DNA of 64,000 nucleotides from Chloroflexota bacterium (lineage in GTDB: Bacteria > Chloroflexota > Anaerolineae > Anaerolineales > Villigracilaceae): the NCBI GenBank assembly GCA_016223135.1, contig JACRPQ010000005.1, positions 176,873 to 240,872 on the forward strand, read 5' to 3'. Within the stretch, counting starts at the first letter, position 1. Each line of letters starts with the position of its first letter. The position numbers and the translations under genes are program-made. The notes under the pieces are model-generated. The model was not told the DNA's origin, did not search any database, and was given only the letters and a program-made list of their open reading frames with translations. Positions 18,571 to 29,480 of the stretch are shown here, in pieces.

Positions 18571-19380
18571 TTAGGGAATCTCACCCGCCAGCTCTTTATC
18601 TATGACCTGTTTGAAAATATCGAGCGGCTGGGCGCCCACGATGGCAAGACCGTTGATGAAGAAGGTGGGGGTGGAACGCACGCCCAGGTTCATGGCAAAG
18701 TCGAGGTCAGCCTGAACGGCTTCGCGGAACCTGCCTTCTGTGATGCAGGAGTTGAACCTTTCCATGTCCAGCCCCAATTCTTGGGCATACTGCGCGTACA
18801 CGTCGCTGCCGAGGGCGTTGCTGCTGAAAAGTTTTTCATGGAATTGCCAATAGGCATTTTGTTCGCCGGCGCACATGACGGCTTCAGCGGCGGGAAAGGC
18901 GTCGGGGTGGATGGACGTCAGCGGGAAATGGCGGTACACCAGGCGAATCTTGCCCGGATAGGCATTGAGCAACGGCTGAAAGACCTGTTCATGCCAGCGG
19001 CGGCAGAAGGGACACTGGTAGTCGCTGAATTCAACGATGGTGATGGGCGCATCTTCCGGACCGATGGAGGGAAATCCATCGGCGGCAACCTCATAGCGGA
19101 TAAACTGCGGCTGTGCCGTAACGGGCGCTTCCACCACCGGACCTTGCGCCCGGGCGGCTGTCACCGGGCTTTTCTCCGCCGGGACGTATCCCCAAACTAC
19201 ATAGCCGAGCAGCACTCCTGCGGCAAAGGCAAGGACGGTCAAAATGGCGTAAAAGTGGCTGACCTTGAAAGTGAAAGACTCTTCTTGTTCGGTCCCCGCT
19301 TCCTCAAAAACTTCCGGTTCGATGACCACTTCCTCTTCGACTTTTTTCTTTCGTGTGGATTTGGTTGGCATGCCGGGCAT
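18571..19380 (-). CDS. Membrane-anchored DsbA/BdbD-like thiol-disulfide oxidoreductase
   Basis: GPEDAPITIVEFSDYQCPFC, HFPL, GVRSTPTFFING. Confidence 0.9.
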   Translation of the reverse strand: MPGMPTKSTRKKKVEEEVVIEPEVFEEAGTEQEESFTFKVSHFYAILTVLAFAAGVLLGYVVWGYVPAEKSPVTAARAQGPVVEAPVTAQPQFIRYEVAADGFPSIGPEDAPITIVEFSDYQCPFCRRWHEQVFQPLLNAYPGKIRLVYRHFPLTSIHPDAFPAAEAVMCAGEQNAYWQFHEKLFSSNALGSDVYAQYAQELGLDMERFNSCITEGRFREAVQADLDFAMNLGVRSTPTFFINGLAIVGAQPLDIFKQVIDKELAGEIP

Positions 19381-19523
19381 TATAACATGCCCCCCCTAGA
19401 GGCAACTTTAAGGCTGGAGCAGACGTATACTTAATACCCCATGAAAACGCATAATGGGCGTTTTCTAATGTTTGCTTTGCGCTAAAGAACGCAATCTATG
19501 CAGTGACTATTTTGGAGGTAGAA

Positions 19524-19748
19524 ATGACCGCACGTGAAAATCGCATTCCCTGGTATCTATGGCCCCTTACCGCCATTTGGAAACTGCTCGCCGTCATCGT
19601 CGAAATGACCGGGCGGCTGGTTGCCATGATTCTCGGCATCGTGCTGATGATTGTTGGTGTGCTCATCAGCCTGACGGTAGTCGGCGCGATTGTAGGGATT
19701 CCGCTGGCAATTGTGGGGTTGTTGCTGTTCCTCAAGGGCATCTTCTAG
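19524..19748 (+). CDS. Small membrane protein
   Basis: RBS GGAGG; hydrophobic; ISLTVVGAIVGIPL motif. Confidence 0.7.
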   Translation: MTARENRIPWYLWPLTAIWKLLAVIVEMTGRLVAMILGIVLMIVGVLISLTVVGAIVGIPLAIVGLLLFLKGIF

Positions 19749-19755
19749 GATGGCA

Positions 19756-20436
19756 TCAGAGAGAGGGGGTGGGATGTGGAGTCCGCTTTCGAAGGTGTGC
19801 CAGGATTCGGTCCCGCAGTGAAGCGACAGCCCTCCGCACCGGCGGGATGCGCAGAATCAGGAACAGGAGGACGACCAGCCCATAAATCAACGGGCGCACA
19901 ATTTCTCCCTGTAGGGCAAAGAAGCTGCCTTTTTTGCTCCAGGCGTAGTGCAGCACAACCAGCGGCGCGATGATGTAAACCATTTGGTGGAGGCGTTTCC
20001 AGTTCCTGCCCAGCCGTTTCTTCCAGATGTCGAAGGATGTCCACGCAAGGGGGATGAGCAGGAGGAAGGAAATTACACCTATGATGATGAATGGTTTTTC
20101 GAAGATCGTTTGGGTGATGAGACTCCACGCCAGCCCGTAGTCGAGATGTAAAAAGATAAGCACATGGACGACCGCATACATGAAGGCATACAGCCCCAGT
20201 GTGCGGCGGCGTTTGAGCGCTTCCGTCCAGTGGAAGAGCGTGTGGAGCGGCGTGCAAGCCAGCGACAAGACCAGCAGTGTGATGGCATGACGCCCTGTGC
20301 GCTGTTCCAGCGCCTGGATGGGGTTGGCAGTGAGGTTATTGGTGAAGAATTGAAACACCAGGATGACCAGCGCCGACCACGCGTACACATGTATGGCAAT
20401 TTGAAGCGGGGTATAACGTTTGAAAAAGTTTTTCAT
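19756..20436 (-). CDS. msrQ: Heme-binding membrane subunit of methionine sulfoxide reductase
   Basis: LACTP, RRTLGLYAF.Y..VH, WKRLHQMVY, LHY; directly downstream of msrP. Confidence 0.9.
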   Translation of the reverse strand: MKNFFKRYTPLQIAIHVYAWSALVILVFQFFTNNLTANPIQALEQRTGRHAITLLVLSLACTPLHTLFHWTEALKRRRTLGLYAFMYAVVHVLIFLHLDYGLAWSLITQTIFEKPFIIIGVISFLLLIPLAWTSFDIWKKRLGRNWKRLHQMVYIIAPLVVLHYAWSKKGSFFALQGEIVRPLIYGLVVLLFLILRIPPVRRAVASLRDRILAHLRKRTPHPTPSL

Positions 20437-20473
20437 GTAAATTAATAATGACACTACTGCAAAAACCTTGAAT

Positions 20474-20544
20474 TCTCACCACGGAGGCACAGAGTCACGG
20501 AGTATTCTTCCTTTTTTAATCTCGGTGACTCCGTGTCTCCGTGA
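20474..20544. repeat. Palindromic intergenic repeat built of roughly 9-bp units
   Basis: CACCACGGAGGCACAGAGTCACGGAG ... CTCGGTGACTCCGTGTCTCCGTGA. Related arms at 23611-23638, 37130-37185, 44505-44535, 52612-52642, 55552-55620. Confidence 0.7.
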
Positions 20545-20571
20545 TTTGATTTTAGCCTTTTTGCAGTGAAC

Positions 20572-21531
20572 TCAATAATACACGCTCAAATCCATGCCGG
20601 CGTAAAGATGCGCCACCTCTTCCGCATAGCCGTTGAACATCAGTGTGGGGCGGCGTCCAAACTCGCCGATGCGGCGTTCCGTCGCTTGTGACCAGCGCGG
20701 GTGCGGCACTTCGGGATTTACGTTGGAGTAGAAGCCGTATTCGTTCGGTCCGACCATGCTCCAGAGCGTGGTCGGCTGTTCCGCGACCAGTTCGATCTTC
20801 GTGATGGATTTGATGGACTTGAACCCATACTTCCACGGCACGACGAGTCGAATCGGCGCGCCGTTTTGGTTGGGCATGGGCTGTCCGTATAAGCCGGTGG
20901 CAAGGATGGTCAGGTCATGCAGTGCCTCGTCGAGCCGCAAGCCTTCCTGATAGGGCCACGGGTAGAAAGGACTCTTTTGCCCGGGCATTTCTTCGGGACG
21001 ATAGACCGTCTCGAAGCGCACATACTTCGCGTCGGAGGTCGGTTCCACCTCCTTCAGCAGGCTTGCGAGCGTGAACCCCGTCCACGGGATGACCATGCTC
21101 CACGCCTCCACACAGCGCAGGCGGTAAATGCGTTCCTCCTGCGTGAAGCGGCTCAGCAGGTCTTCGATGCCGTACGTCTTCGGCTTGTTGACCAGCCCAT
21201 ATACTTCCACTGTCCAGGGTTTGGGATTGAATTTCTGCGCCAGCCGCGCGACCCCTTCTTTGTCGGTGGTGAACTCGTAATAGTTGTTGTAGTTGGTGAT
21301 GTCTTCATAAGAATTGGCGGGATCGCGCAACTCATCCGCTTTGCCGCCTGGAATGGCAGACGCTTCGGACTCAGGGACGGTTGATTCAGTCACGGACGGC
21401 GCACACGCCGCGAGCAGCGCCGCCCCGCCCACAATGCCGGCAGCCTTGAGAAAGTCCCGCCGCGAAAGATATTGCGAATACGGCGTAATCTCAGAGGATT
21501 TCACGGGAACGGATTTGAATTTGTGAGTCAT
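20572..21531 (-). CDS. msrP: Molybdo-methionine sulfoxide reductase catalytic subunit
   Basis: Tat signal SRRDFLK; [44 protein letters not shown]. Confidence 0.96.
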
Positions 21532-21555
21532 GTCTTTTCCTATTGAACTTCAATA

Positions 21556-21608
21556 TCATTCTGAGCGAGGCGACACTTGCACCGCACGCAAGTGCAGGCG
21601 AGAATCTC
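21556..21608. repeat. REP-like element with an inserted hairpin
   Basis: TCATTCTGAGCGAGGCGA...AGAATCTC interrupted by the palindrome CACTTGC-N7-GCAAGTG (21574-21594). Confidence 0.5.
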
Positions 21609-21639
21609 TGATCATGTTGTTGAGACCCTGCAAAAATAA

Positions 21640-22197
21640 TCAATATGTTTCAAGCAGCAGCGCCTTGATGTTCTCTTCCGTCTCGGCATATCTTCCTTCG
21701 CCGACATGCACGTAACGGATGTGACCCTGCTTGTCTATCAGGTACAGTGTGGGCCAGTACTGGTTCTTGTAAGCCCGCCAGGTTGCGCCGTCGTTATCCT
21801 GTGCAACCGCATATTCAATTCCGAATTTTGCAATCGCGTTCTTTACGTTCTCGATGTCCCTTTCATACGAGAACTCGGGATAATGATTGCCAATGATGAC
21901 GAGCCCCTGGTCGGCATATTTGCTGTGCCATTCCTTCAAGGAAGGAATCACATTCTGGCAATTGATGCAGCCGAACGTCCACATTTCCAAGAGGACCACT
22001 TTGCCTTGCAGGTCGGCGAGCCGCAGTGGAGAGGAAACATTCAGCCAGATATCATTCGTCAGTTCAGGAGCAGGTCCCAGGTCAGGCAGCGAGGCGGTTT
22101 TGGGCATGGACAGCTCCTCCGCTTGTTGCTGGAGGTTGCTTTGGGGGGCGCATCCAAAAAGGATGAAGGCAAGCAATCCAAAAAAATAACGTCGCAT
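21640..22197 (-). CDS. Thioredoxin-fold (redoxin, DipZ C-terminal-like) lipoprotein
   Basis: Lipobox LFGC; WTFGCINC; GNHYPEF; YWPTLYLID. Confidence 0.88.
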   Translation of the reverse strand: MRRYFFGLLAFILFGCAPQSNLQQQAEELSMPKTASLPDLGPAPELTNDIWLNVSSPLRLADLQGKVVLLEMWTFGCINCQNVIPSLKEWHSKYADQGLVIIGNHYPEFSYERDIENVKNAIAKFGIEYAVAQDNDGATWRAYKNQYWPTLYLIDKQGHIRYVHVGEGRYAETEENIKALLLETY

Positions 22198-22219
22198 GGT
22201 CGGTCTCCTTGATGACGTT

Positions 22220-22252
22220 ATTCTAAGGAGACTTCCTTACAGAAAGATTACG
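22220..22252 (-). promoter_or_regulatory. Putative response-regulator-dependent promoter (redoxin-msrPQ)
   Basis: Minus strand CGTAAT-N5-TGTAAG-N10-TAGAAT. Confidence 0.55.
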
Positions 22253-22338
22253 CGATGATGAAAAGACCCTAAAGGTTTTGAATCAACCTCTCGAAGGATT
22301 GTGAACAACCTTGTTCTATCGAAGGACTTTCGGGGTGT

Positions 22339-23571
22339 TCATGGAAGGCGGAACGTGAACTGTGTGCCTTTGCCCACTTCGCTTTCGACCGTGATCTCGC
22401 CCCCGTGCGCACGGACGATGCCGCGCGCGATGGCAAGCCCCAACCCCGCGCCGCCCGTGCCTCGATTGCGAGACTTCTCGCCGCGGTAGAAACGCTCGAA
22501 GACCTGCTGGAGGTCTTCCGCGCGGATGCCTTCGCCCGTATCGCTGACGGTCACTTCCACGCCCTGGCTGGTTCGCCGCACCCACACGCTGACCCTGCCC
22601 CGCACCGTATGCCGCAGCGCATTGCCGATCAAATTGTTCAGCACGCGCCCGATGGCTTGCGTGTCCATGTGGACGGGGTCAACCTCCGGGTCAACGTTGC
22701 CTTCGAGTGTGGTTTCATTTTGTTTGGCGAGTTCGGTGAAACTTTCGAGCGTGTCCGAAACGAGGTCGCTCAACGAGGCGTTTGCCTTATTGAGCGGAAA
22801 ACCGCCTGCGTCGAGTTGCGCCATCTGGAACAGGTCGTCTATCAAAGCGGAAAGATTTCGCACGTCGCGCTGTGCCGTGTTGAGATAACGCTTCACCGTT
22901 TCGGGGTCGTCCACCACGCCGTCGGCAACCGCTTCCAGGATGGCGCGCATGGACGTAAGCGGGGTTTGCAAATCGTGGCTGACCCAGGCAATCAGGTCGC
23001 GGCGCATGGACTCGAGGTCGCGTTGTTTCTGGTCGGCGGCTTGTAATTGTTCTGCCATCTGGTTGAAGGCGTTGGCTAGCACACTGACCTCGTCACGTCC
23101 CTGCACGGGGACGCGGATATTCAAGTCTCCTTTTGCGAGTTTTTCCGCCGCCGCCTTCAATCCATGAATGCGTTCCGTCACTGTGCTGGAGAGAAAGTAT
23201 CCCAGCGCCATCGCCATGCCGCTGGCAAAGACCAGCAGGATGATTGCCAATAATAAGTCGTGCGGACTGACGAACATCATCTGCGCCGAGAACCACACGT
23301 TGAAGAAAGTGAGAATACTTGCCAGCGCATATCCGCCGAGCAGCGTCCAGTGCAAGGTGGGGGAATGATTGATCCAGCCGAAGCGATAGGCGGCGTATCC
23401 CGCCAGCGCCGAGATCAACGCGGTGATGCCAAGATACAACGCCATCAATCCCAGTTCGTTCATCGGCGGCACCATGATCAAAACGAAGATGCCCAGCGAG
23501 ATGGCGACGATCAACAAGACGCCAATCGCAAAGCGGGCGAGCGGGGGATTTGGGGTGAGGGTGGTTTTCAT
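22339..23571 (-). CDS. 4-TM HAMP sensor histidine kinase
   Basis: HAMP domain; H-box VSHDLQTPL; N-box NLIGNALRH; G boxes DTGEGI, GAGLGL. Confidence 0.95.
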   Translation of the reverse strand: MKTTLTPNPPLARFAIGVLLIVAISLGIFVLIMVPPMNELGLMALYLGITALISALAGYAAYRFGWINHSPTLHWTLLGGYALASILTFFNVWFSAQMMFVSPHDLLLAIILLVFASGMAMALGYFLSSTVTERIHGLKAAAEKLAKGDLNIRVPVQGRDEVSVLANAFNQMAEQLQAADQKQRDLESMRRDLIAWVSHDLQTPLTSMRAILEAVADGVVDDPETVKRYLNTAQRDVRNLSALIDDLFQMAQLDAGGFPLNKANASLSDLVSDTLESFTELAKQNETTLEGNVDPEVDPVHMDTQAIGRVLNNLIGNALRHTVRGRVSVWVRRTSQGVEVTVSDTGEGIRAEDLQQVFERFYRGEKSRNRGTGGAGLGLAIARGIVRAHGGEITVESEVGKGTQFTFRLP

Positions 23572-23731
23572 AAAAACTCTTTAGACAGCGCTTTGAAATT
23601 CATTTTCCAGCCACAGATGAACATAGATATATCTGTGGTGAATTTCGATTTATAAAACACTCTCTTAAACACAAAGGATAAAGGACTTAAAGCCTTGAGT
23701 TGAAAATGCTTTGTGCCTTTGCGGTAAAAAA

Positions 23732-24436
23732 TTACGGCTCGAACTTATAACCCACACCCCACACGGTCAGCAGCCGTCTGGGTTTCGATGGGTCGTCCTC
23801 GATCTTCTCGCGCAGGCGCCGCACATGCACGGTCACGGTGCCTGGGTCAATGTATTGCGCGCCGCCCCACACGCGTTCCAGCAACTGCTCACGCGTGAAC
23901 ACCTGTCTCGGATGACGCGCCAGCAGGTACAGCATGTCGAACTCCTTGGCGGTGAGATCAATGGGATTCTCTTTAACGGTGACCACGCGACTCTTTGGAT
24001 CAATGGACAGATTCTCGAACGACAGCGCCCGGTCATTCCCCGCCTCCGCCTGCTCCCGTCCGAGACGCCGCATCACCGCCCGAACGCGACTCACCAACTC
24101 CTGCGGGCTGAACGGCTTGACCACATAATCGTCCGCGCCCATTTCGAGTCCGGCGATGCGGTCTATCTCCTCGCGGCGCGCCGTCAGCATGATGATCGGC
24201 ACATCGGAACGGTCGCGCAGCCAGCGGGTCAGAGAGAGACCGTCCACTTCGGGGAGCATCAGGTCCAGGATGACGAAGTCGGGTTGCGAGCGTTCGAAGA
24301 AAGTCATCGCTTGTTTCCCGTCCGAAGCGATCTGCACGCCATAGCCTGCGCGCTTGAGATACAGGCTGACCACTTCCGCGATGCTGGCTTCGTCCTCCAC
24401 AACAAGGATGTTCTTTGCGTTCATTGGCATGATCAT
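23732..24436 (-). CDS. OmpR-family response regulator
   Basis: LVVEDE, ILDLMLP, GADDYVVKPF, winged helix ...TVWGVGYKF. Confidence 0.96.
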   Translation of the reverse strand: MIMPMNAKNILVVEDEASIAEVVSLYLKRAGYGVQIASDGKQAMTFFERSQPDFVILDLMLPEVDGLSLTRWLRDRSDVPIIMLTARREEIDRIAGLEMGADDYVVKPFSPQELVSRVRAVMRRLGREQAEAGNDRALSFENLSIDPKSRVVTVKENPIDLTAKEFDMLYLLARHPRQVFTREQLLERVWGGAQYIDPGTVTVHVRRLREKIEDDPSKPRRLLTVWGVGYKFEP

Positions 24437-24475
24437 ACTCCGAGTTTTGCGAAACGGTGAAAGTGTTCAGACTTT

Positions 24476-24519
24476 CGTAATGATTTTACAGCCGTTTTGT
24501 AAGAGTGAGTCAGTATGAT
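24476..24519 (+). promoter_or_regulatory. Putative response-regulator-dependent promoter (Met-rich redoxin-ccdA)
   Basis: CGTAAT-N16-TGTAAG-N10-TATGAT. Confidence 0.55.
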
Positions 24520-24546
24520 GCGGGGAACTCAAACAAGGAGAAAAGA

Positions 24547-25212
24547 ATGAAGACAAAAAATATTGTGTTACATGGGATGTTGTTGCTGGTCTTTGTGTTG
24601 GCGGCATGCAGCGGCGGAACTTCGAATGATGTAATGGACAAGCCTGAAGACGCCATGATGGAAAAGCCGACCGAAGAAGCGATGATGGAGACGTCCACCC
24701 CCGAAGCCATGATGGGCGATCAGCACAACAATGCAATGTCGGATGACGCGATGAAGGAAACGCCCGCATGGTATTCCGTTTCGCTGACGGATGTGAACAC
24801 GGGCGAGTCATTCACAATCAACGATCTCAAAGGCAAGGTCATCCTTGTCGAGACGATGGCAGTGTGGTGTTCCAACTGTCTCAGTCAACAGACCCAGGTG
24901 AAGGCATTGCACGAAGCCCTCGGCGAACGCGATGACTTTGTCAGTTTGGGAATTGATATTGACCCGAACGAAGACGCGGAAAAACTTGCGTCGTTCACTT
25001 CATCGAACGGTTTCAACTGGAAGTACATTGTCGCTTCCCCCGAAATCTCCGCTGAATTCGCCTCGTTGTACGGCGGTCAATTCCTCAACCCGCCCTCGAC
25101 TCCCATGCTGATCATTGACCGCAAGGGTGTTGCGCATCCGCTTCCCTTCGGTATCAAAAGCGTGGATGAGTTAATGAAAGCGCTCCAGCCGTTCCTGGAT
25201 GAGGCGATGTAG
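24547..25212 (+). CDS. TlpA/redoxin lipoprotein with a Met-rich N-terminal linker
   Basis: Lipobox VLAAC; DAMME/EAMME/EAMMG repeats; thioredoxin motif WCSNC; RBS AAGGAG. Confidence 0.88.
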   Translation: MKTKNIVLHGMLLLVFVLAACSGGTSNDVMDKPEDAMMEKPTEEAMMETSTPEAMMGDQHNNAMSDDAMKETPAWYSVSLTDVNTGESFTINDLKGKVILVETMAVWCSNCLSQQTQVKALHEALGERDDFVSLGIDIDPNEDAEKLASFTSSNGFNWKYIVASPEISAEFASLYGGQFLNPPSTPMLIIDRKGVAHPLPFGIKSVDELMKALQPFLDEAM

Positions 25213-25258
25213 CCCTCACCCCCTACCACTCTCTACCCCTCTCCCTATGGGAGAGGGG
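25213..25258. repeat. REP family CCCTCACCCC..CCCCTCTCCC-NNN-GGGAGAGGGG
   Basis: Hairpin at 25236-25258. Other copies at 35579-35605, 58823-58872, 59455-59496, 63958-63982. Confidence 0.8.
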
Positions 25259-25268
25259 AGAAAACATT

Positions 25269-25940
25269 ATGGAAACCATCCTCACCTCCCTCTCCCTTGG
25301 TCTGCTTGCTACGACCAGTCCCTGTGTCCTGCCGCTGTATCCCGGTTTTCTTGCCTACCTCAGCGGCGGGCAGGAGGGAATGACGAATAAAGCAGGTCGT
25401 TATTTCCTCGGGTTCTTCGTCCTTGCCGGCGTGTTGACGATGATGCTCGCGCTTGGCGGGATCATTGCGTTGTTGTCCGTTTCGATTGGCAGGGCGTTGT
25501 CCGTTATCATTCCGCTTGCGGACACGGTCATCATCCTCTTCGGCATTTTGCTGTTGTTGAATATCAACCCCTTCAAAAGTCTGCCGCAGGTGCAGGTGCC
25601 TGTGCTTTCGCATCCGTTCGTCAATGCGTTTCTCTACGGTCTGTTATACGGACCGATCGCATTGCCGTGTTCGGGTCCGCTGGTGGTGAGCATCTTCGCC
25701 CTCTCGCTTACCTTCACCGAAACGTTCAGCCAACTCAACGTCTTTTTCTGGTTCGGCATGGGATTTGGCATTCCGCTCCTGCTGTTGTCGTTTCTTTCCG
25801 GTGCGGCGCAGCGCTGGATCACGCGCCAGTTTGCGATGCGCGCCCGTTTGATTAATGTGGTCAGCGGGTTGTTGCTGTTGGGTGTGGGGATCTATGACCT
25901 GAGCGTCAACTGGTCGTTGTTGCAGGCGTATTTTGTGTAA
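25269..25940 (+). CDS. ccdA: CcdA/DsbD-like transmembrane electron transporter
   Basis: SPCVLPLYP and ALPCSGP motifs; 6 TM helices. Confidence 0.88.
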   Translation: METILTSLSLGLLATTSPCVLPLYPGFLAYLSGGQEGMTNKAGRYFLGFFVLAGVLTMMLALGGIIALLSVSIGRALSVIIPLADTVIILFGILLLLNINPFKSLPQVQVPVLSHPFVNAFLYGLLYGPIALPCSGPLVVSIFALSLTFTETFSQLNVFFWFGMGFGIPLLLLSFLSGAAQRWITRQFAMRARLINVVSGLLLLGVGIYDLSVNWSLLQAYFV

Positions 25941-26008: not shown

Positions 26009-26116
26009 CTAGCCACCCGACACTTTTGTTTTGGGACGCAGATGAACGCTGATTTAAGTTTTTTCTGCGTTTATCTGCGTTTTTCAGCGTCCCATTTGAA
26101 ACTGTCAGGTCGCTAG
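26009..26116. mobile_element. MITE family A, copy 2 (108 bp, uninterrupted)
   Basis: Reverse complement of the 11373-11620 element without the nested insert; flanks TATTCTTT / TACTCTTT (7/8 duplication). Confidence 0.85.
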
Positions 26117-27741
26117 TACTCTTTTTCTTCTCCATTTTCATTTTCACGATACACAGCGACCCGGTTGCGTCCGGCATGTTTGGCGGCATAGAGCGCCCGG
26201 TCCGCCGCGCGCAGGAGATCCTCCTTCTTTTCGCCGTGTAAGGGAAAAGCCGAGAGACCCATCGAAACGGTAACGTTGAGGCTGAAGCGCCCAAAGGGAA
26301 TGTACAGTAATGAAATGGAGCGGTGCAGCGAACTCACCCGCTCCTTGGCGACTTCCAGACTGATGTTCGGCATGACCAGCACGAATTCCTCCCCCCCATA
26401 GCGGCAGACGAAGTCGCCATGGCGGCTCTGACTGGTCACTGTTTCTGCCAATGTTTTGAGGACGATGTCGCCCGCTTCGTGTCCATAGGTGTCATTGACT
26501 TCCTTGAAGTGGTCAATATCCATCATCACAATGCACAACGGATAGACTTCGCGGGCGGCGCGCGCCAGCTCGCGTTCGAGTGTCTCCTCCAAATAGCGGC
26601 GGTTGAAGAGGTTGGTTAACGCATCGCGGATCGCCTGTTCGCGCAGTTGACTTTGAAGCAGCCCGATTTCGATCAATTGAGTTTGCATTCTGTCCATGGC
26701 ATGGCGCAGGTCTTTTTCCACTTCCTTGCGGTCGGTGATGTCGCGGAAGACGATGATGCGTCCGTTCAAGGTGTGGTCGTTATCGTAGAGGGGAGTCACC
26801 CGCAGGTCCAGGTAACGAGACGGTTTGTGGGGAAGCCGCATTTCGGTGCGGATTTCCTGTCCCTGCATCAGATGTTCGAAGCGATCGTTCCAAATATTCA
26901 GAATGTCTGTAATGTTTTTTCCCAGGAACGAAACGGGGTCGGCGTCGAGAAAGTTCTTCATGGCAGGGTTGATATCCACAATGCGCCCCTCCACGTCAAC
27001 GACCACCAAGCCGTCGCTCATTTTCTCGATGAGATGACTGCGCGCAAAAGGAACCAGATCCATGAACTTGTGGCGGAAGATGGCGTAGACGTACACCACT
27101 CCGGTGATGCCAAACATCATGGGCGTATAGTCGGGTTCAATAGACCCTTCTCTTCGCAGGTGTGTAAAAGCGCTGAACAGGAAAGGCACAACCGAGCCGA
27201 GCAATATCATCCGATACTGTCTTTTGAAGAAAGAGTTTGCCTGACGGTAACTTACCGTTAATAGCGCAAGCCCCAGCAGAATGAGCAGGTAAGAGTAGAA
27301 CAGGTTGAACCAAAACCCTGCGCCGCGCTGGACGTTCATAATGACATAACCATCCTGCGTGAATGACCGGATGGATGCAAAGAGGGCTTGCGGCGACAGC
27401 CAGACCATCAGCACAATCAGCACAGGTTCAATGGCTAACAGCAGGAGATTCCGAAAGGTAAGCCATTTTTCGCGGCGGGTGAGGAACAGGGTGAAGAGCA
27501 GAAAGCATGTCGGCACGATGACCACGCCAAAATATGTCACCTTCAACCAGAAAATTTTTTGAGGCAGCGACGCCGACAGCCAGACCATTGCGTAAGCGCC
27601 CGACCAGATGAACATTCCTGCAAGCATGATTTTCAACGCAAAAGCGCCTGGAGCCGTTCGACGCCAGGCGATGATAAGCACGCTTAAGGTTGCAATGGTG
27701 GAAAGAGCCAGAACAACGGAGTAGGGGTGCAATTGAAACAT
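26113..27741 (-). CDS. Diguanylate cyclase (7TM sensor, PAS, GGDEF)
   Basis: N-terminal multi-TM region, PAS (DGLVVVD), DALTNLFNRR, RxxD I-site RHGD, GGEEF. Confidence 0.93.
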   Translation of the reverse strand: MFQLHPYSVVLALSTIATLSVLIIAWRRTAPGAFALKIMLAGMFIWSGAYAMVWLSASLPQKIFWLKVTYFGVVIVPTCFLLFTLFLTRREKWLTFRNLLLLAIEPVLIVLMVWLSPQALFASIRSFTQDGYVIMNVQRGAGFWFNLFYSYLLILLGLALLTVSYRQANSFFKRQYRMILLGSVVPFLFSAFTHLRREGSIEPDYTPMMFGITGVVYVYAIFRHKFMDLVPFARSHLIEKMSDGLVVVDVEGRIVDINPAMKNFLDADPVSFLGKNITDILNIWNDRFEHLMQGQEIRTEMRLPHKPSRYLDLRVTPLYDNDHTLNGRIIVFRDITDRKEVEKDLRHAMDRMQTQLIEIGLLQSQLREQAIRDALTNLFNRRYLEETLERELARAAREVYPLCIVMMDIDHFKEVNDTYGHEAGDIVLKTLAETVTSQSRHGDFVCRYGGEEFVLVMPNISLEVAKERVSSLHRSISLLYIPFGRFSLNVTVSMGLSAFPLHGEKKEDLLRAADRALYAAKHAGRNRVAVYRENENGEEKEY

Positions 27742-27888
27742 GGTCAATCCACGCCTGCGCGACCGGGCTGCAGACATGTGGTTTCTATTTTACTTTGTTT
27801 ATCCCAAGGTGCAGCAGGGCGGCAAGCCGCCTAACATAAAAGCAAAGGCTCGCCAGCGAAGGCGAGCCTGTTTTCCTGCTTGTTCAAC

Positions 27889-28266
27889 TTACTCCCCGCC
27901 AAATGCCTCGAGCGCGGATGCCATACTTTCGTACATGGGAATGTTTTGTAAAAAACCGGTAATCCCCAAGACGTTGTAAATCTGTGGAGGCGCACTGCAT
28001 AGTTTGAGGCGTATCGTTTTATGCGGGTCGTTTGCCGGCGTGAACATCTGGTATACCTTCTGAATGGCGCGCATGCCTGCGCTGGTAAGCGTATCGAGAT
28101 CGCTCATTTCAATCAGCAGGTAACGCCCCCCCGCTTCATACGCCGACTGTGCGGCTTCCAAAAATTGTGTTTCGCTTTGGGCGTCCAGCCACCCGCCAAT
28201 GTGAAAGACGGTCACAGGCACACCGGCTTGTATTTGCTCGCTTGTCATCTTTAAATCGCTTTTCAC
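27889..28266 (-). CDS. STAS domain / anti-sigma factor antagonist
   Basis: G.LDA, LIEMSDLDTLTSAGMR, VLGITGF. Confidence 0.85.
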   Translation of the reverse strand: MKSDLKMTSEQIQAGVPVTVFHIGGWLDAQSETQFLEAAQSAYEAGGRYLLIEMSDLDTLTSAGMRAIQKVYQMFTPANDPHKTIRLKLCSAPPQIYNVLGITGFLQNIPMYESMASALEAFGGE

Positions 28267-28313: not shown

Positions 28314-29480
28314 TTACATCTTCTTCACGTATTCCGCCTGGACGAAGCCCTGCACGCCGCTTTCATTTTGCACGAACAGCCATTTTCCCGCCACGCCAAT
28401 CTTGCGCACCGCCTGGGCTTCATTCTCCAGCACGGTGAGCCGCGCTTTCATCTGTTCGTTTGCCAGCGCTTTCGATTTGACGGAAGCCGTTTCGTGGATT
28501 CTCAACCCTGCCTTGCCAACGGTCGCCTTGACGCGCAGCACCAACGCCGTTGAAGACGGCGTCCCCGCTTCACTGCCTGAACTGGAAGCTGGTTCCGCCG
28601 TGGACGGATAGACCTCCCCCGGAACTTTTTCCAGGTACCAGGCGGCGGCGAGACCTTCCTTGCCGTTCTTCGTGCGGACGCGCACCCACTGGTTGATGGC
28701 GCCGATCTTCGTCCAGCCGTTGGGTTCGATGATGGTCAGCAGGTCGCCGGCATGAGCGGCGTCCACGACATTGGCTTTGGAGGAGGTGTCTTCGCTGGTG
28801 CGGATGTTCAAGCCTGAGGTTACGTCCGCTTTGACGCGGGCTTTGGGTCCAGCCGTCGAAACGGGAGCAGTTGTCGGCGGAGTCTGAGGCGCGCCGGTCG
28901 AGGTCGCCTTTTGTCCGGGCAGTTGGATCGTTCCGTCTGCGTTGATGTTTTCGTACAGGACAATCTGCACGATGGAACGCTGGAGCGGGTTGCCGTGACT
29001 GTAGCGCGGCATGAGGTAGGTCTCTTTGTTGACATCCGTCTGGTAGGGCCAGGGGTCGAGCATGAGGTAGTCGTTGCCTTTGCGGGCGATGACCACCACA
29101 TAGTGCGTGAGCAATCCTGGCGCCGGGGTGCTGTCCACGCAGACGATGGCGGGCTGACCGGCGGCGAGGGCGGCGTCAATTTGCTCGAGGGGAGCGGGCG
29201 TATCGTAACATTGGATGATGGAGTTGAGCCGTATTTGCGGGTAGAGTTGCGCCACGCTGTGCCAGCGGATGCCAGAGCCGGCAAACCCGTTGATGCCTTG
29301 CAATTTCTGGTTGAGGGTCTTGGGGGTGACGGTGTAACCGTGTCCGCTCAAGACCATGGCAACGCTGGTGAGGGCGCACCCGACATAGCCGATGGTATCT
29401 GAAGACTGGCTGCCGAAACCGAGTTTGTCGGCTTTCCATTGCGGGTCTTGCTGGGAATAGTAAACAAGTTGGAAGGACAC
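28314..29480 (-). CDS. C39-like cysteine peptidase with two SH3b-like domains
   Basis: YYSQQDPQW, GCALTSVAM, HYVVV, DPW; C-terminal LNIR/LRIH...W..V...G..G..AA.Y repeats; GTG start. Confidence 0.75.
   Translation of the reverse strand: MSFQLVYYSQQDPQWKADKLGFGSQSSDTIGYVGCALTSVAMVLSGHGYTVTPKTLNQKLQGINGFAGSGIRWHSVAQLYPQIRLNSIIQCYDTPAPLEQIDAALAAGQPAIVCVDSTPAPGLLTHYVVVIARKGNDYLMLDPWPYQTDVNKETYLMPRYSHGNPLQRSIVQIVLYENINADGTIQLPGQKATSTGAPQTPPTTAPVSTAGPKARVKADVTSGLNIRTSEDTSSKANVVDAAHAGDLLTIIEPNGWTKIGAINQWVRVRTKNGKEGLAAAWYLEKVPGEVYPSTAEPASSSGSEAGTPSSTALVLRVKATVGKAGLRIHETASVKSKALANEQMKARLTVLENEAQAVRKIGVAGKWLFVQNESGVQGFVQAEYVKKM

Follow-up and report, generated by a model that had tools for sequence, protein, structure and literature searches.

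Gene content and layout of the locus

We examined a window of 64,000 nt from the forward strand of a Chloroflexota bacterium (Villigracilaceae; GCA_016223135.1, contig JACRPQ010000005.1, positions 176,873 to 240,872), and within it a gene cluster, first bounded at positions 19756 to 25940 of the window, in which the methionine-sulfoxide repair enzymes MsrP and MsrQ are found beside thioredoxin-like lipoproteins, the thiol electron transporter CcdA and a two-component system. All seven genes named by the initial annotation were recovered at their coordinates in the open reading frame (ORF) list and by profile searches. On the minus strand these were: (i) msrQ (19756 to 20454), encoding the haem-binding membrane subunit (NF003831, 171 bits against a cutoff of 130; PF01794, Ferric_reduct, 9.8e-16); (ii) msrP (20572 to 21531), encoding the molybdopterin methionine-sulfoxide reductase (NF003767, 466 bits against a cutoff of 207; PF00174, 8.5e-36); (iii) the gene of a 185-aa thioredoxin-like lipoprotein, hereafter redoxin, with a CINC site in the sequence WTFGCINC and matches to Pfam AhpC-TSA and Redoxin (21640 to 22197); (iv) a sensor histidine kinase gene (22339 to 23571; Pfam HAMP, HisKA and HATPase, with four hydrophobic segments); and (v) the gene of an OmpR/PhoB-family response regulator of the WalR/MtrA-like clade (23732 to 24436; Pfam Response_reg and Trans_reg_C). 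The plus strand carried the gene of a TlpA-like thiol-disulfide reductase lipoprotein (24547 to 25212) with the lipobox LAAC, the active site WCSNC and a PF08534 (Redoxin) score of 33 bits against a cutoff of 26.6, followed by ccdA (25269 to 25940), which encodes a transmembrane thiol electron transporter of the DsbD type (PF02683, DsbD_TM, 36.7 bits against a cutoff of 27.1) with both membrane-embedded catalytic cysteines present, in SPCVLPLYP and IALPCSGP. The TlpA-like gene likely starts at the ATG at 24547, behind an AAGGAG Shine-Dalgarno sequence, rather than at the GTG at 24505 given by the ORF list (24505 to 25212).

The description of these genes as two divergent units flanking the two-component system was accurate for tlpA-ccdA, which is divergent from the rest; the minus strand instead carries, in this order, the response regulator, kinase, redoxin, msrP and msrQ genes. 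The left boundary at 19756 was also revised, as a conserved gene downstream of msrQ (18571 to 19380, minus strand), separated from it by a 375-bp gap, extends the module leftward. This gene encodes a DsbA-like thioredoxin-fold protein with a CPFC motif and an N-terminal membrane anchor (Pfam Thioredoxin_4, 2e-34; DSBA, 1.5e-20). To place the cluster in a wider context, one genome per GTDB species was scanned, yielding 80 TlpA-anchored loci (the related loci below) that were compared with the window proteins by tblastn. The DsbA-like gene was detected at the matching relative position in roughly 35 of these, and also in L081, L083 and L087, and on this comparative ground it is the probable last member of the module. 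A separate observation on this protein is that it scores high, though under the cutoff (140 bits; cutoff 190), with the model of the 'Rcas_1661 family thioredoxin-like (seleno)lipoprotein'; it has the CPFC motif, and a membrane anchor in place of a lipobox.

Three of the extracytoplasmic enzymes of the cluster are predicted lipoproteins. MsrP carries a twin-arginine translocation (TAT) signal according to PF10518 and TIGR01409 (RRDFLK...LLAAC) with the lipobox LLAAC directly after it, an arrangement of lipobox after TAT signal found in 43 of 47 MsrP orthologues; the redoxin and the TlpA-like protein carry lipoboxes as well.

Methionine-rich tether of the TlpA-like lipoprotein

Between its lipobox and its folded domain the TlpA-like protein has an acidic, disordered tether rich in methionine (Met), encoded at 24610 to 24762 on the plus strand (lipoprotein residues 22 to 72). 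As first noticed from the letters, nine Met fall within the 48 residues after the lipobox cysteine (Cys), and the units DAMME, EAMME and EAMMG are all present. Met makes up 17% and charged residues 31% (acidic ones 25%) of the whole 52-residue segment that runs from the lipobox Cys up to the folded domain; the linkers of the two neighbouring lipoproteins contain 0 and 1 Met. No other 48-residue stretch in the 225 ORFs of at least 80 aa in the window is as dense in Met; given a Met frequency of 2.36% in the window, at least nine Met in 48 residues have a per-position probability of 1.6e-6, which becomes about 0.03 when multiplied by all 19,415 positions. Structure prediction with AlphaFold2, based on a 20-sequence alignment, gave a predicted local distance difference test score below 50 for residues 22 to 69 and a confident thioredoxin domain from residue 70. 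When this domain was compared by Foldseek, it grouped with ResA, CcmG, TlpA and Etrx1 at TM-scores of about 0.7 to 0.78, with no single closest relative. The protein thus has the thioredoxin fold, CxxC site and membrane anchor of the TlpA/ResA/CcmG type. It is neither TlpA nor ResA in the equivalog sense, as it scores 31 bits with the Bradyrhizobium japonicum TlpA model (cutoff 230) and 17 bits with the Bacillus subtilis ResA model (cutoff 170).

Far stronger evidence than this density statistic is provided by the conservation of the tether in homologues, which the initial annotation had named as one of the tests that could overturn its reading. More than 2,000 homologues of the TlpA-like protein were detected at E-values up to 1e-3; those with a named source were from Chloroflexota of the Anaerolineales type, and they derive from groundwater, sludge, sediments and hot springs. 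All 118 full-length sequences among the top 120 had a Met-rich tether with 4 to 13 Met. In the 80 related loci, the repeat unit varied by lineage (among others KPTEEAMM, TEEAMM, DDETMM, GDDSM and DEAMA) and Met was kept, with about 15 copies of DDETMM in the tether of L079; TPEAMM is a further lineage-specific unit that keeps Met. An exhaustive search of 1.8 billion cluster representatives with the thioredoxin domain only revealed that tether Met content is bimodal in the wider family (0% or 10 to 24%): 47 of the 117 scorable representatives had at least 10% Met, with a maximum of 24%, and often carried the recurring unit TP[DE]AMM, while distant members had ordinary Pro/Thr/Ala/Glu linkers without Met. 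Tether length and repeat number varied widely (5 to 33 Met). Because Met has a single codon, base composition cannot yield such a bimodal pattern, and the retention of Met through independent repeat expansions points to selection for methionines that are exposed and clustered. A histidine within PH[DE] was also conserved in the tethers of close relatives. As a side observation, the 531-aa family representative P0127 (L127 region) has an N-terminal extension of about 360 residues in which Met/Asp-rich repeats are followed by another domain, such that tether architecture varies beyond simple repeats.

Met-rich segments of this kind have a precedent. The background on which the initial annotation drew, namely that MsrPQ repairs extracytoplasmic Met-sulfoxide, that HprSR (YedVW) controls msrPQ in Escherichia coli, and that Met-rich peptides serve in Azospira as hypochlorous acid (HOCl) sinks recycled by YedY/MsrP, was borne out by the literature. 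The yedYZ operon of Azospira encodes MrpX, an exported protein (20% Met, 44% charged residues) that HOCl oxidizes and YedY/MsrP regenerates; in Brucella, its homologue BcrX carries the annotation of an MXKDX repeat protein. Rhodobacter MsrP, in turn, prefers unfolded substrates whose Met are clustered and lie in a polar context, a description that fits the tether. The tether would therefore resemble MrpX in mode of action without belonging to its family: it is fused to a thioredoxin domain and encoded in a divergent operon, rather than forming a stand-alone small peptide of the msrPQ operon. With the MrpX/BcrX family model TIGR02953 (cutoff 41 bits), 11 of 144 relatives gave sub-threshold matches, the best of them P0041 at E = 1.2e-5 (24.7 bits). 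When a separate MrpX-like gene was sought in the loci with a Met-poor tether, none was detected and only shadow ORFs were seen; the small ORFs found upstream of the TlpA-like gene in loci that lack msrPQ likewise look spurious.

Shared operator, conserved neighbourhood and two-component system

Both arms of the cluster are preceded by the same operator. Upstream of the redoxin gene, the sequence CGTAATCTTTCTGTAAG (22236 to 22252, minus strand) contains two YGTAAK hexamers in an 11-bp register, as the direct repeat CGTAAT-N5-TGTAAG; this operator is located 9 nt upstream of a -10-like TAGAAT and 44 to 55 nt before the redoxin start codon. Upstream of tlpA-ccdA, the repeat takes the form CGTAAT-N16-TGTAAG in a 22-bp register (24476 to 24503, plus strand), 10 nt upstream of a -10-like TATGAT. 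The general motif is thus a direct repeat, YGTAAK-N5/N16-YGTAAG, at a fixed distance before the -10 box of both promoters, neither of which has a recognizable -35 element; promoters activated by OmpR/PhoB-type regulators usually lack one. Neither form has a second exact match in the window; for the N16 form, 0.01 occurrences are expected by chance. About 35 of 40 orthologous regions contained the motif of the first operator at an unchanged distance, and that of the second was conserved in most of the orthologous intergenic regions. When the whole 1.26 Mb of the 80 related loci was searched on both strands, the core promoter region (the redoxin promoter and the promoters in the interval that separates the regulator gene from the TlpA-like gene) contained 54 of the 55 occurrences of the N5 (11-bp) form and 45 of the 47 occurrences of the N16 (22-bp) form. 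A reciprocal scan anchored on MsrP, which drew on an independent metagenome set of 597 kb, detected the 11-bp form upstream of the redoxin gene in all eight loci holding that region; the other occurrences of this form were upstream of msrP in L120 and at one further site in L117. Since the same conserved operator precedes redoxin-msrPQ and tlpA-ccdA, we predict that the local OmpR-type regulator controls both arms as one regulon, on evidence that is comparative and short of proof. Many loci had in addition oppositely oriented operator copies near the regulator gene, which suggests autoregulation.

The neighbourhood was found to be conserved as well. The cluster recurs across Anaerolineales, and most loci share the layout of the window, usually including the DsbA-like gene. 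The ccdA gene directly follows the TlpA-like gene in 76 of the 80 loci, the regulator gene is the most constant neighbour (59 of 80), and msrP was within 10 kb in 42 of the 61 loci having enough flank. The layout itself was found to vary. In L053 and L077, the order redoxin-msrP-msrQ-regulator-kinase is divergent from tlpA-ccdA; in the Bellilinea group (L055, L064 and L080), msrQP is directly divergent from tlpA-ccdA without a two-component system; and in L073 and L120, msrPQ is downstream of ccdA. The link between msrP and tlpA thus survives at least three rearranged layouts. In the MsrP-anchored set, the closest relatives kept the order regulator-kinase-redoxin-msrP-msrQ-dsbA, while the relatives of MsrP below about 70% identity were mostly found with msrPQ alone; tlpA-ccdA stands alone in variable contexts in Pelolinea and other loci. 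The two-component system is thus a hub whose two arms are frequent but can be separated. Aside from this, a tandem msrP pair preceded msrQ in L005, L084 and L087, with copies 66 to 72% identical to the window MsrP.

The two-component system itself is an analogue of HprSR and not its orthologue. The response regulator scored 155.9 bits with the HprR model NF008567 (cutoff 353), while MtrA, YycF, RpaB and PhoB models all scored higher; its best NCBIfam matches were MtrA and YycF, both below their cutoffs. The WalR-type consensus is TGTWAH-N5-TGTWAH, and the resemblance of the operator repeat to it fits these sub-threshold profile matches. The kinase has no sizeable extracytoplasmic domain; rather, a hydropathy profile predicted two outer loops of about 5 to 9 residues, which carried PP (residues 35 and 36) and MMF-x-S-x-HD (residues 98 to 104) as invariant motifs across 58 aligned orthologues. 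Met, His and Asp are also ligands of metals. In E. coli HprS, by comparison, Met72, Met73 and Met153 in the periplasmic loop are reported to be important for HOCl sensing, and reset by MsrP has been proposed. The Met-Met doublet of the kinase invites the idea of HprS-like Met sensing, even though the architecture differs from that of an HprS-type kinase, with its periplasmic sensor loop between two transmembrane helices (Met72/Met153). A further feature of the window is the spacer of 160 bp between the regulator and kinase genes (23572 to 23731), which is AT-rich and contains the hairpin CCACAGAT-N12-ATCTGTGG. In the relatives the two genes usually abut (computed gap of 0 in 23 of 54 loci and below 40 bp in 39 of 54). 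The spacer may be an insertion or an internal regulatory element.

Proposed function, alternatives and flanking genes

The data are consistent with a model in which the extracytoplasmic enzymes would be anchored as lipoproteins on the outer face of the cytoplasmic membrane, and in which an oxidant would presumably serve as the inducing signal. The kinase would probably sense through the invariant Met-Met and His-Asp residues of its very short outer loop, and the OmpR-family regulator would bind the YGTAAK direct repeats that replace the -35 element of two outward-facing promoters. One arm, redoxin-msrP-msrQ and probably dsbA, would provide methionine sulfoxide repair through lipid-anchored MsrP fed by MsrQ. 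In the other arm, tlpA-ccdA, reducing power from cytoplasmic thioredoxin would pass via CcdA to the TlpA-like lipoprotein. The redoxin, first gene product of its operon, matched the C-terminal thioredoxin domain of Mycobacterium tuberculosis DipZ (PDB 2hyx and 5cyy, about E 6e-40), which in DipZ is naturally joined to a membrane domain of the CcdA type. The fusion suggests that CcdA, across the divergent promoter, also serves the redoxin, so that the TlpA-like protein and the DipZ-type redoxin would both reduce oxidized cysteines. In E. coli, it is established that MsrP receives its electrons from MsrQ and needs no thiol donor; the thioredoxin arm would thus most likely work in parallel to MsrPQ, rather than in series with it, in reducing oxidized Cys. 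The tether, finally, would most likely act as a local renewable oxidant sink like MrpX and BcrX, with its Met, which are clustered, exposed and in a polar context, oxidized first and then re-reduced by the neighbouring MsrP.

We assign different levels of confidence to the parts of this model. There are good grounds to regard the cluster as a module for Met and Cys repair that is conserved and probably co-regulated, and this part is quite likely to be correct. A sacrificial-sink role of the tether is plausible, falling slightly short of an even chance, and for the cluster as an envelope oxidative-damage repair regulon in which the tether is included as a renewable sink, the arguments for and against are about evenly balanced. 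More tentatively, and with the balance tilted against it, the cluster can be pictured as the single-membrane, lipoprotein-anchored counterpart of periplasmic repair: a Met-Met hub would control a quinone-driven Met arm and a thioredoxin-driven Cys arm, and the tether would physically couple the two, shield the CxxC site and the membrane surface in cis, be recycled by lipid-anchored MsrP and perhaps feed back on signalling. The proposal of a combined Met and Cys repair module is partly supported: the conserved unit, the shared operator, the conserved tether and its MrpX-like composition speak for it, while the two-component system is not orthologous to HprSR and the tether does not match the MrpX model.

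Several observations weigh against this interpretation. The window tether gave no match to TIGR02953 at E-values up to 10 and so does not belong to the MrpX/BcrX family. The Bellilinea group keeps msrQP beside tlpA-ccdA even though its tether is Met-poor (1 to 4 Met per 60 to 70 residues), and therefore the link to MsrPQ does not depend on the tether. Thirteen loci whose tether is Met-rich lack msrP within 10 kb. A tight dependence of the Met-rich tether on msrPQ adjacency is accordingly rejected: the two are weakly associated (38/13 versus 4/6, odds ratio 4.4, p = 0.057, with no phylogenetic correction). Four of the closest MsrP relatives (L081, L085, L086 and L087) lack tlpA-ccdA beside the regulator gene, the kinase topology comes from a hydropathy plot only, and a search of sequencing runs detected the locus in DNA metagenomes only, the RNA runs found sharing 5 to 7% of words. 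On the side of chemistry, E. coli msrPQ is reported to be induced by copper via CusSR and MsrP to repair the Met ligands of CusF, and Met-rich and Met/His motifs are classic ligands of Cu(I). These last two points lead to the main rival explanation, that of a copper/silver stress module, in which the tether serves as a sponge or chaperone arm for Cu(I)/Ag(I), the Met-Met...His-Asp loop of the kinase senses metal, the thioredoxin-like and DsbA-like proteins correct copper-catalysed mis-disulfides as Scs/DsbC do, and MsrPQ keeps the metal-binding Met reduced. The invariant loop MMF-x-S-x-HD does hold typical Cu ligands, the PH[DE] histidine of close relatives would suit such a role, JGI labels some homologues of the TlpA-like protein 'SCO1/SenC', and the set of DsbD-like, TlpA-like and Thioredoxin_4-type proteins would resemble ScsB, ScsD and ScsC. 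However, many tethers of the family lack any His (among them those of L013, L015, L027, L039, L042, L079, P0170 and P0176), and tether composition (Met, Asp, Glu, Lys, Thr and Pro) is nearer to that of MrpX than to the His-rich sponges PcoE, SilE and CopM. Moreover, the TlpA-like active site is CxxC and not the Sco-type CxxxC plus His, and heavy-metal kinase and regulator models scored below those of WalK/MtrB and MtrA/YycF. Neither the flanks nor the conserved neighbours showed copper-handling genes, the latter lacking CopA, CopZ, CsoR and multicopper oxidase. We regard a copper module as rather unlikely; the copper and oxidant readings are, in any case, compatible.

Two further explanations concern the tether and its operon more narrowly. 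In the first, tlpA-ccdA performs housekeeping thiol reduction, for cytochrome c maturation or in general, and is a chance neighbour of the MsrPQ operon with a Met-rich linker that is only a neutral low-complexity spacer. The pairing of CcdA with a ResA/TlpA-type protein is indeed the classic System II accessory pathway, and the occurrence of tlpA-ccdA alone in variable contexts, its absence beside the regulator in some close relatives and the ordinary Pro/Thr/Ala linkers of distant family members are what this explanation would lead one to expect. Against it, cytochrome c maturation genes were absent from both the flanks and the conserved neighbours, the latter holding no ResB, ResC or CcsA-like genes, and the ResA and TlpA equivalog scores given above are far below cutoff. 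The operator before tlpA-ccdA is the same as that before redoxin-msrPQ, and the single-codon Met is bimodal in content and retained through independent repeat expansions; because of this shared operator and this retained Met, housekeeping with a neutral linker is quite improbable. The other explanation, to which we attach a similarly low probability, regards the tether as a regulatory element: oxidation of its Met would alter stiffness or polarity and thereby gate the reach or activity of the thioredoxin domain, or the tether would compete with the Met-Met loop of the kinase for oxidant and MsrP, setting the threshold and shut-off of the response. It draws on the Met redox switch reset by MsrP that has been proposed for HprS, on the invariant doublet in the kinase outer loop and on the regulator and kinase genes being the most constant neighbours of the TlpA-like gene (59 of 80 loci); furthermore, one copy of the tether per lipoprotein molecule limits sink capacity compared with the strongly induced soluble MrpX. 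Yet the wide variation in tether length and repeat number (5 to 33 Met) fits a role in capacity or composition better than a precise switch.

We would classify the repair module as a variant of known systems for oxidant repair in the envelope, each of which it resembles in part. Like YedY1Z1-MrpX of Azospira suillum (SigF/NrsF) and BcrXQP of Brucella (BcrS/AbcS), it combines a secreted segment rich in Met and charged residues with MsrPQ and a dedicated envelope-stress regulator, and the composition of the segment is similar (17% Met and 31% charged residues, as compared with 20% and 44% in MrpX). The differences are that this segment forms the N-terminal tether of a thioredoxin-fold lipoprotein instead of a free small peptide, is encoded with CcdA in a divergent operon instead of the msrPQ operon, and is associated with a two-component system instead of an extracytoplasmic function (ECF) sigma/anti-sigma pair. 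With hiuH-msrPQ of E. coli (HprSR/YedVW, CusSR) it shares the placement of MsrPQ under an adjacent two-component system of the OmpR family and the presence of Met in the extracytoplasmic part of the kinase. It differs from HprSR and CusSR in its WalRK/MtrAB-like clade, very short kinase outer loops and WalR-like direct-repeat operator, and from hiuH-msrPQ in that MsrP is a lipoprotein and the predicted regulon also includes thioredoxin-like proteins and CcdA. The CcdA1/2-Etrx1/2-MsrAB2 system of Streptococcus pneumoniae, its homologues in S. gordonii and PilB of Neisseria likewise couple CcdA-fed surface thioredoxin lipoproteins to Met-sulfoxide repair, and the fold of the TlpA-like protein is close to that of Etrx1. 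In the pneumococcal system, however, the thioredoxins directly reduce the thiol-dependent MsrA/MsrB, in series, whereas here the molybdoenzyme MsrP is fed by MsrQ, and MsrA or MsrB was found neither at 12.8 to 33.8 kb of the window nor among the conserved neighbours; in this the cluster differs from a system of that type. Nor is the redoxin a DipZ (Rv2874), in spite of its match to the thioredoxin domain of that protein: DipZ joins the domain to a CcdA-like membrane domain and a carbohydrate-binding module in one polypeptide, while the redoxin is a lipoprotein of its own from the msrPQ operon, with CcdA coming from the divergent operon. Finally, the Scs systems of Salmonella, Proteus and Caulobacter (ScsB-ScsC-ScsD) presumably share with the cluster, judging from domain content, a DsbD-type transporter, a TlpA-like anchored reductase, a Thioredoxin_4/DsbA-like protein and an envelope stress regulator. 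The present cluster lacks ScsA, the N-terminal domain of ScsB and copper genes, and adds MsrPQ and the Met-rich tether.

The initial annotation had not known this arrangement from Chloroflexota, and a search of a collection of papers likewise retrieved no description of MsrPQ together with CcdA or TlpA in the phylum. To our knowledge, nearly all that is established about MsrPQ comes from Proteobacteria, where the enzyme works in a true periplasm, and we know of no renewable Met sinks described other than the free peptides MrpX and BcrX. Here, a TAT-exported lipoprotein MsrP is encoded in a predicted regulon with thioredoxin lipoproteins presumably fed by CcdA, and a sink-like Met-rich segment is built into one of the reductases. 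If the interpretation holds, the principle of sacrificial Met would be more widespread and modular than thought, and the cluster would offer (i) a defined system in which to study the coordination of Met and Cys repair at the cell surface and (ii) a compact operator-regulator pair for oxidant sensing in a poorly characterized phylum. Should the coupled-arm picture also be correct, the cluster would extend the MrpX sink principle, in fused and surface-tethered form, to a phylum from which we know of no described example.

The remaining features of the region are as follows. Near-identical DNA is present in groundwater, biofilm, subsurface and hot-spring metagenomes. Scans of the window for tRNA genes and Rfam families returned no tRNA and no family at the gathering score, and sigma-70 promoter and terminator scans gave counts no different from those of shuffled sequence. 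Conserved neighbours of the cluster include genes for ComEC-like, peptidase S51-like, epimerase/DUF2867, deoxynucleoside kinase, STAS, C39/SH3 and GGDEF proteins. Directly downstream of ccdA and convergent with it is a gene for a diguanylate cyclase with seven transmembrane segments, PAS and GGDEF domains (26113 to 27777, minus strand), followed by those of a STAS-domain protein (27889 to 28266, minus strand) and a C39-like peptidase/SH3 protein (28314 to 29480, minus strand). The positions of these three genes are conserved in the closest relatives; L085 and L087, which lack tlpA-ccdA beside the regulator gene, have the GGDEF gene immediately upstream of that gene. An 81-aa ORF (19503 to 19748, plus strand), situated between msrQ and the DsbA-like gene but opposite to them in orientation, encodes a small two-helix membrane protein with a weak match to DUF5362; as a homologous ORF occurs at the same place in 27 of the 80 related loci, it is probably a real gene.

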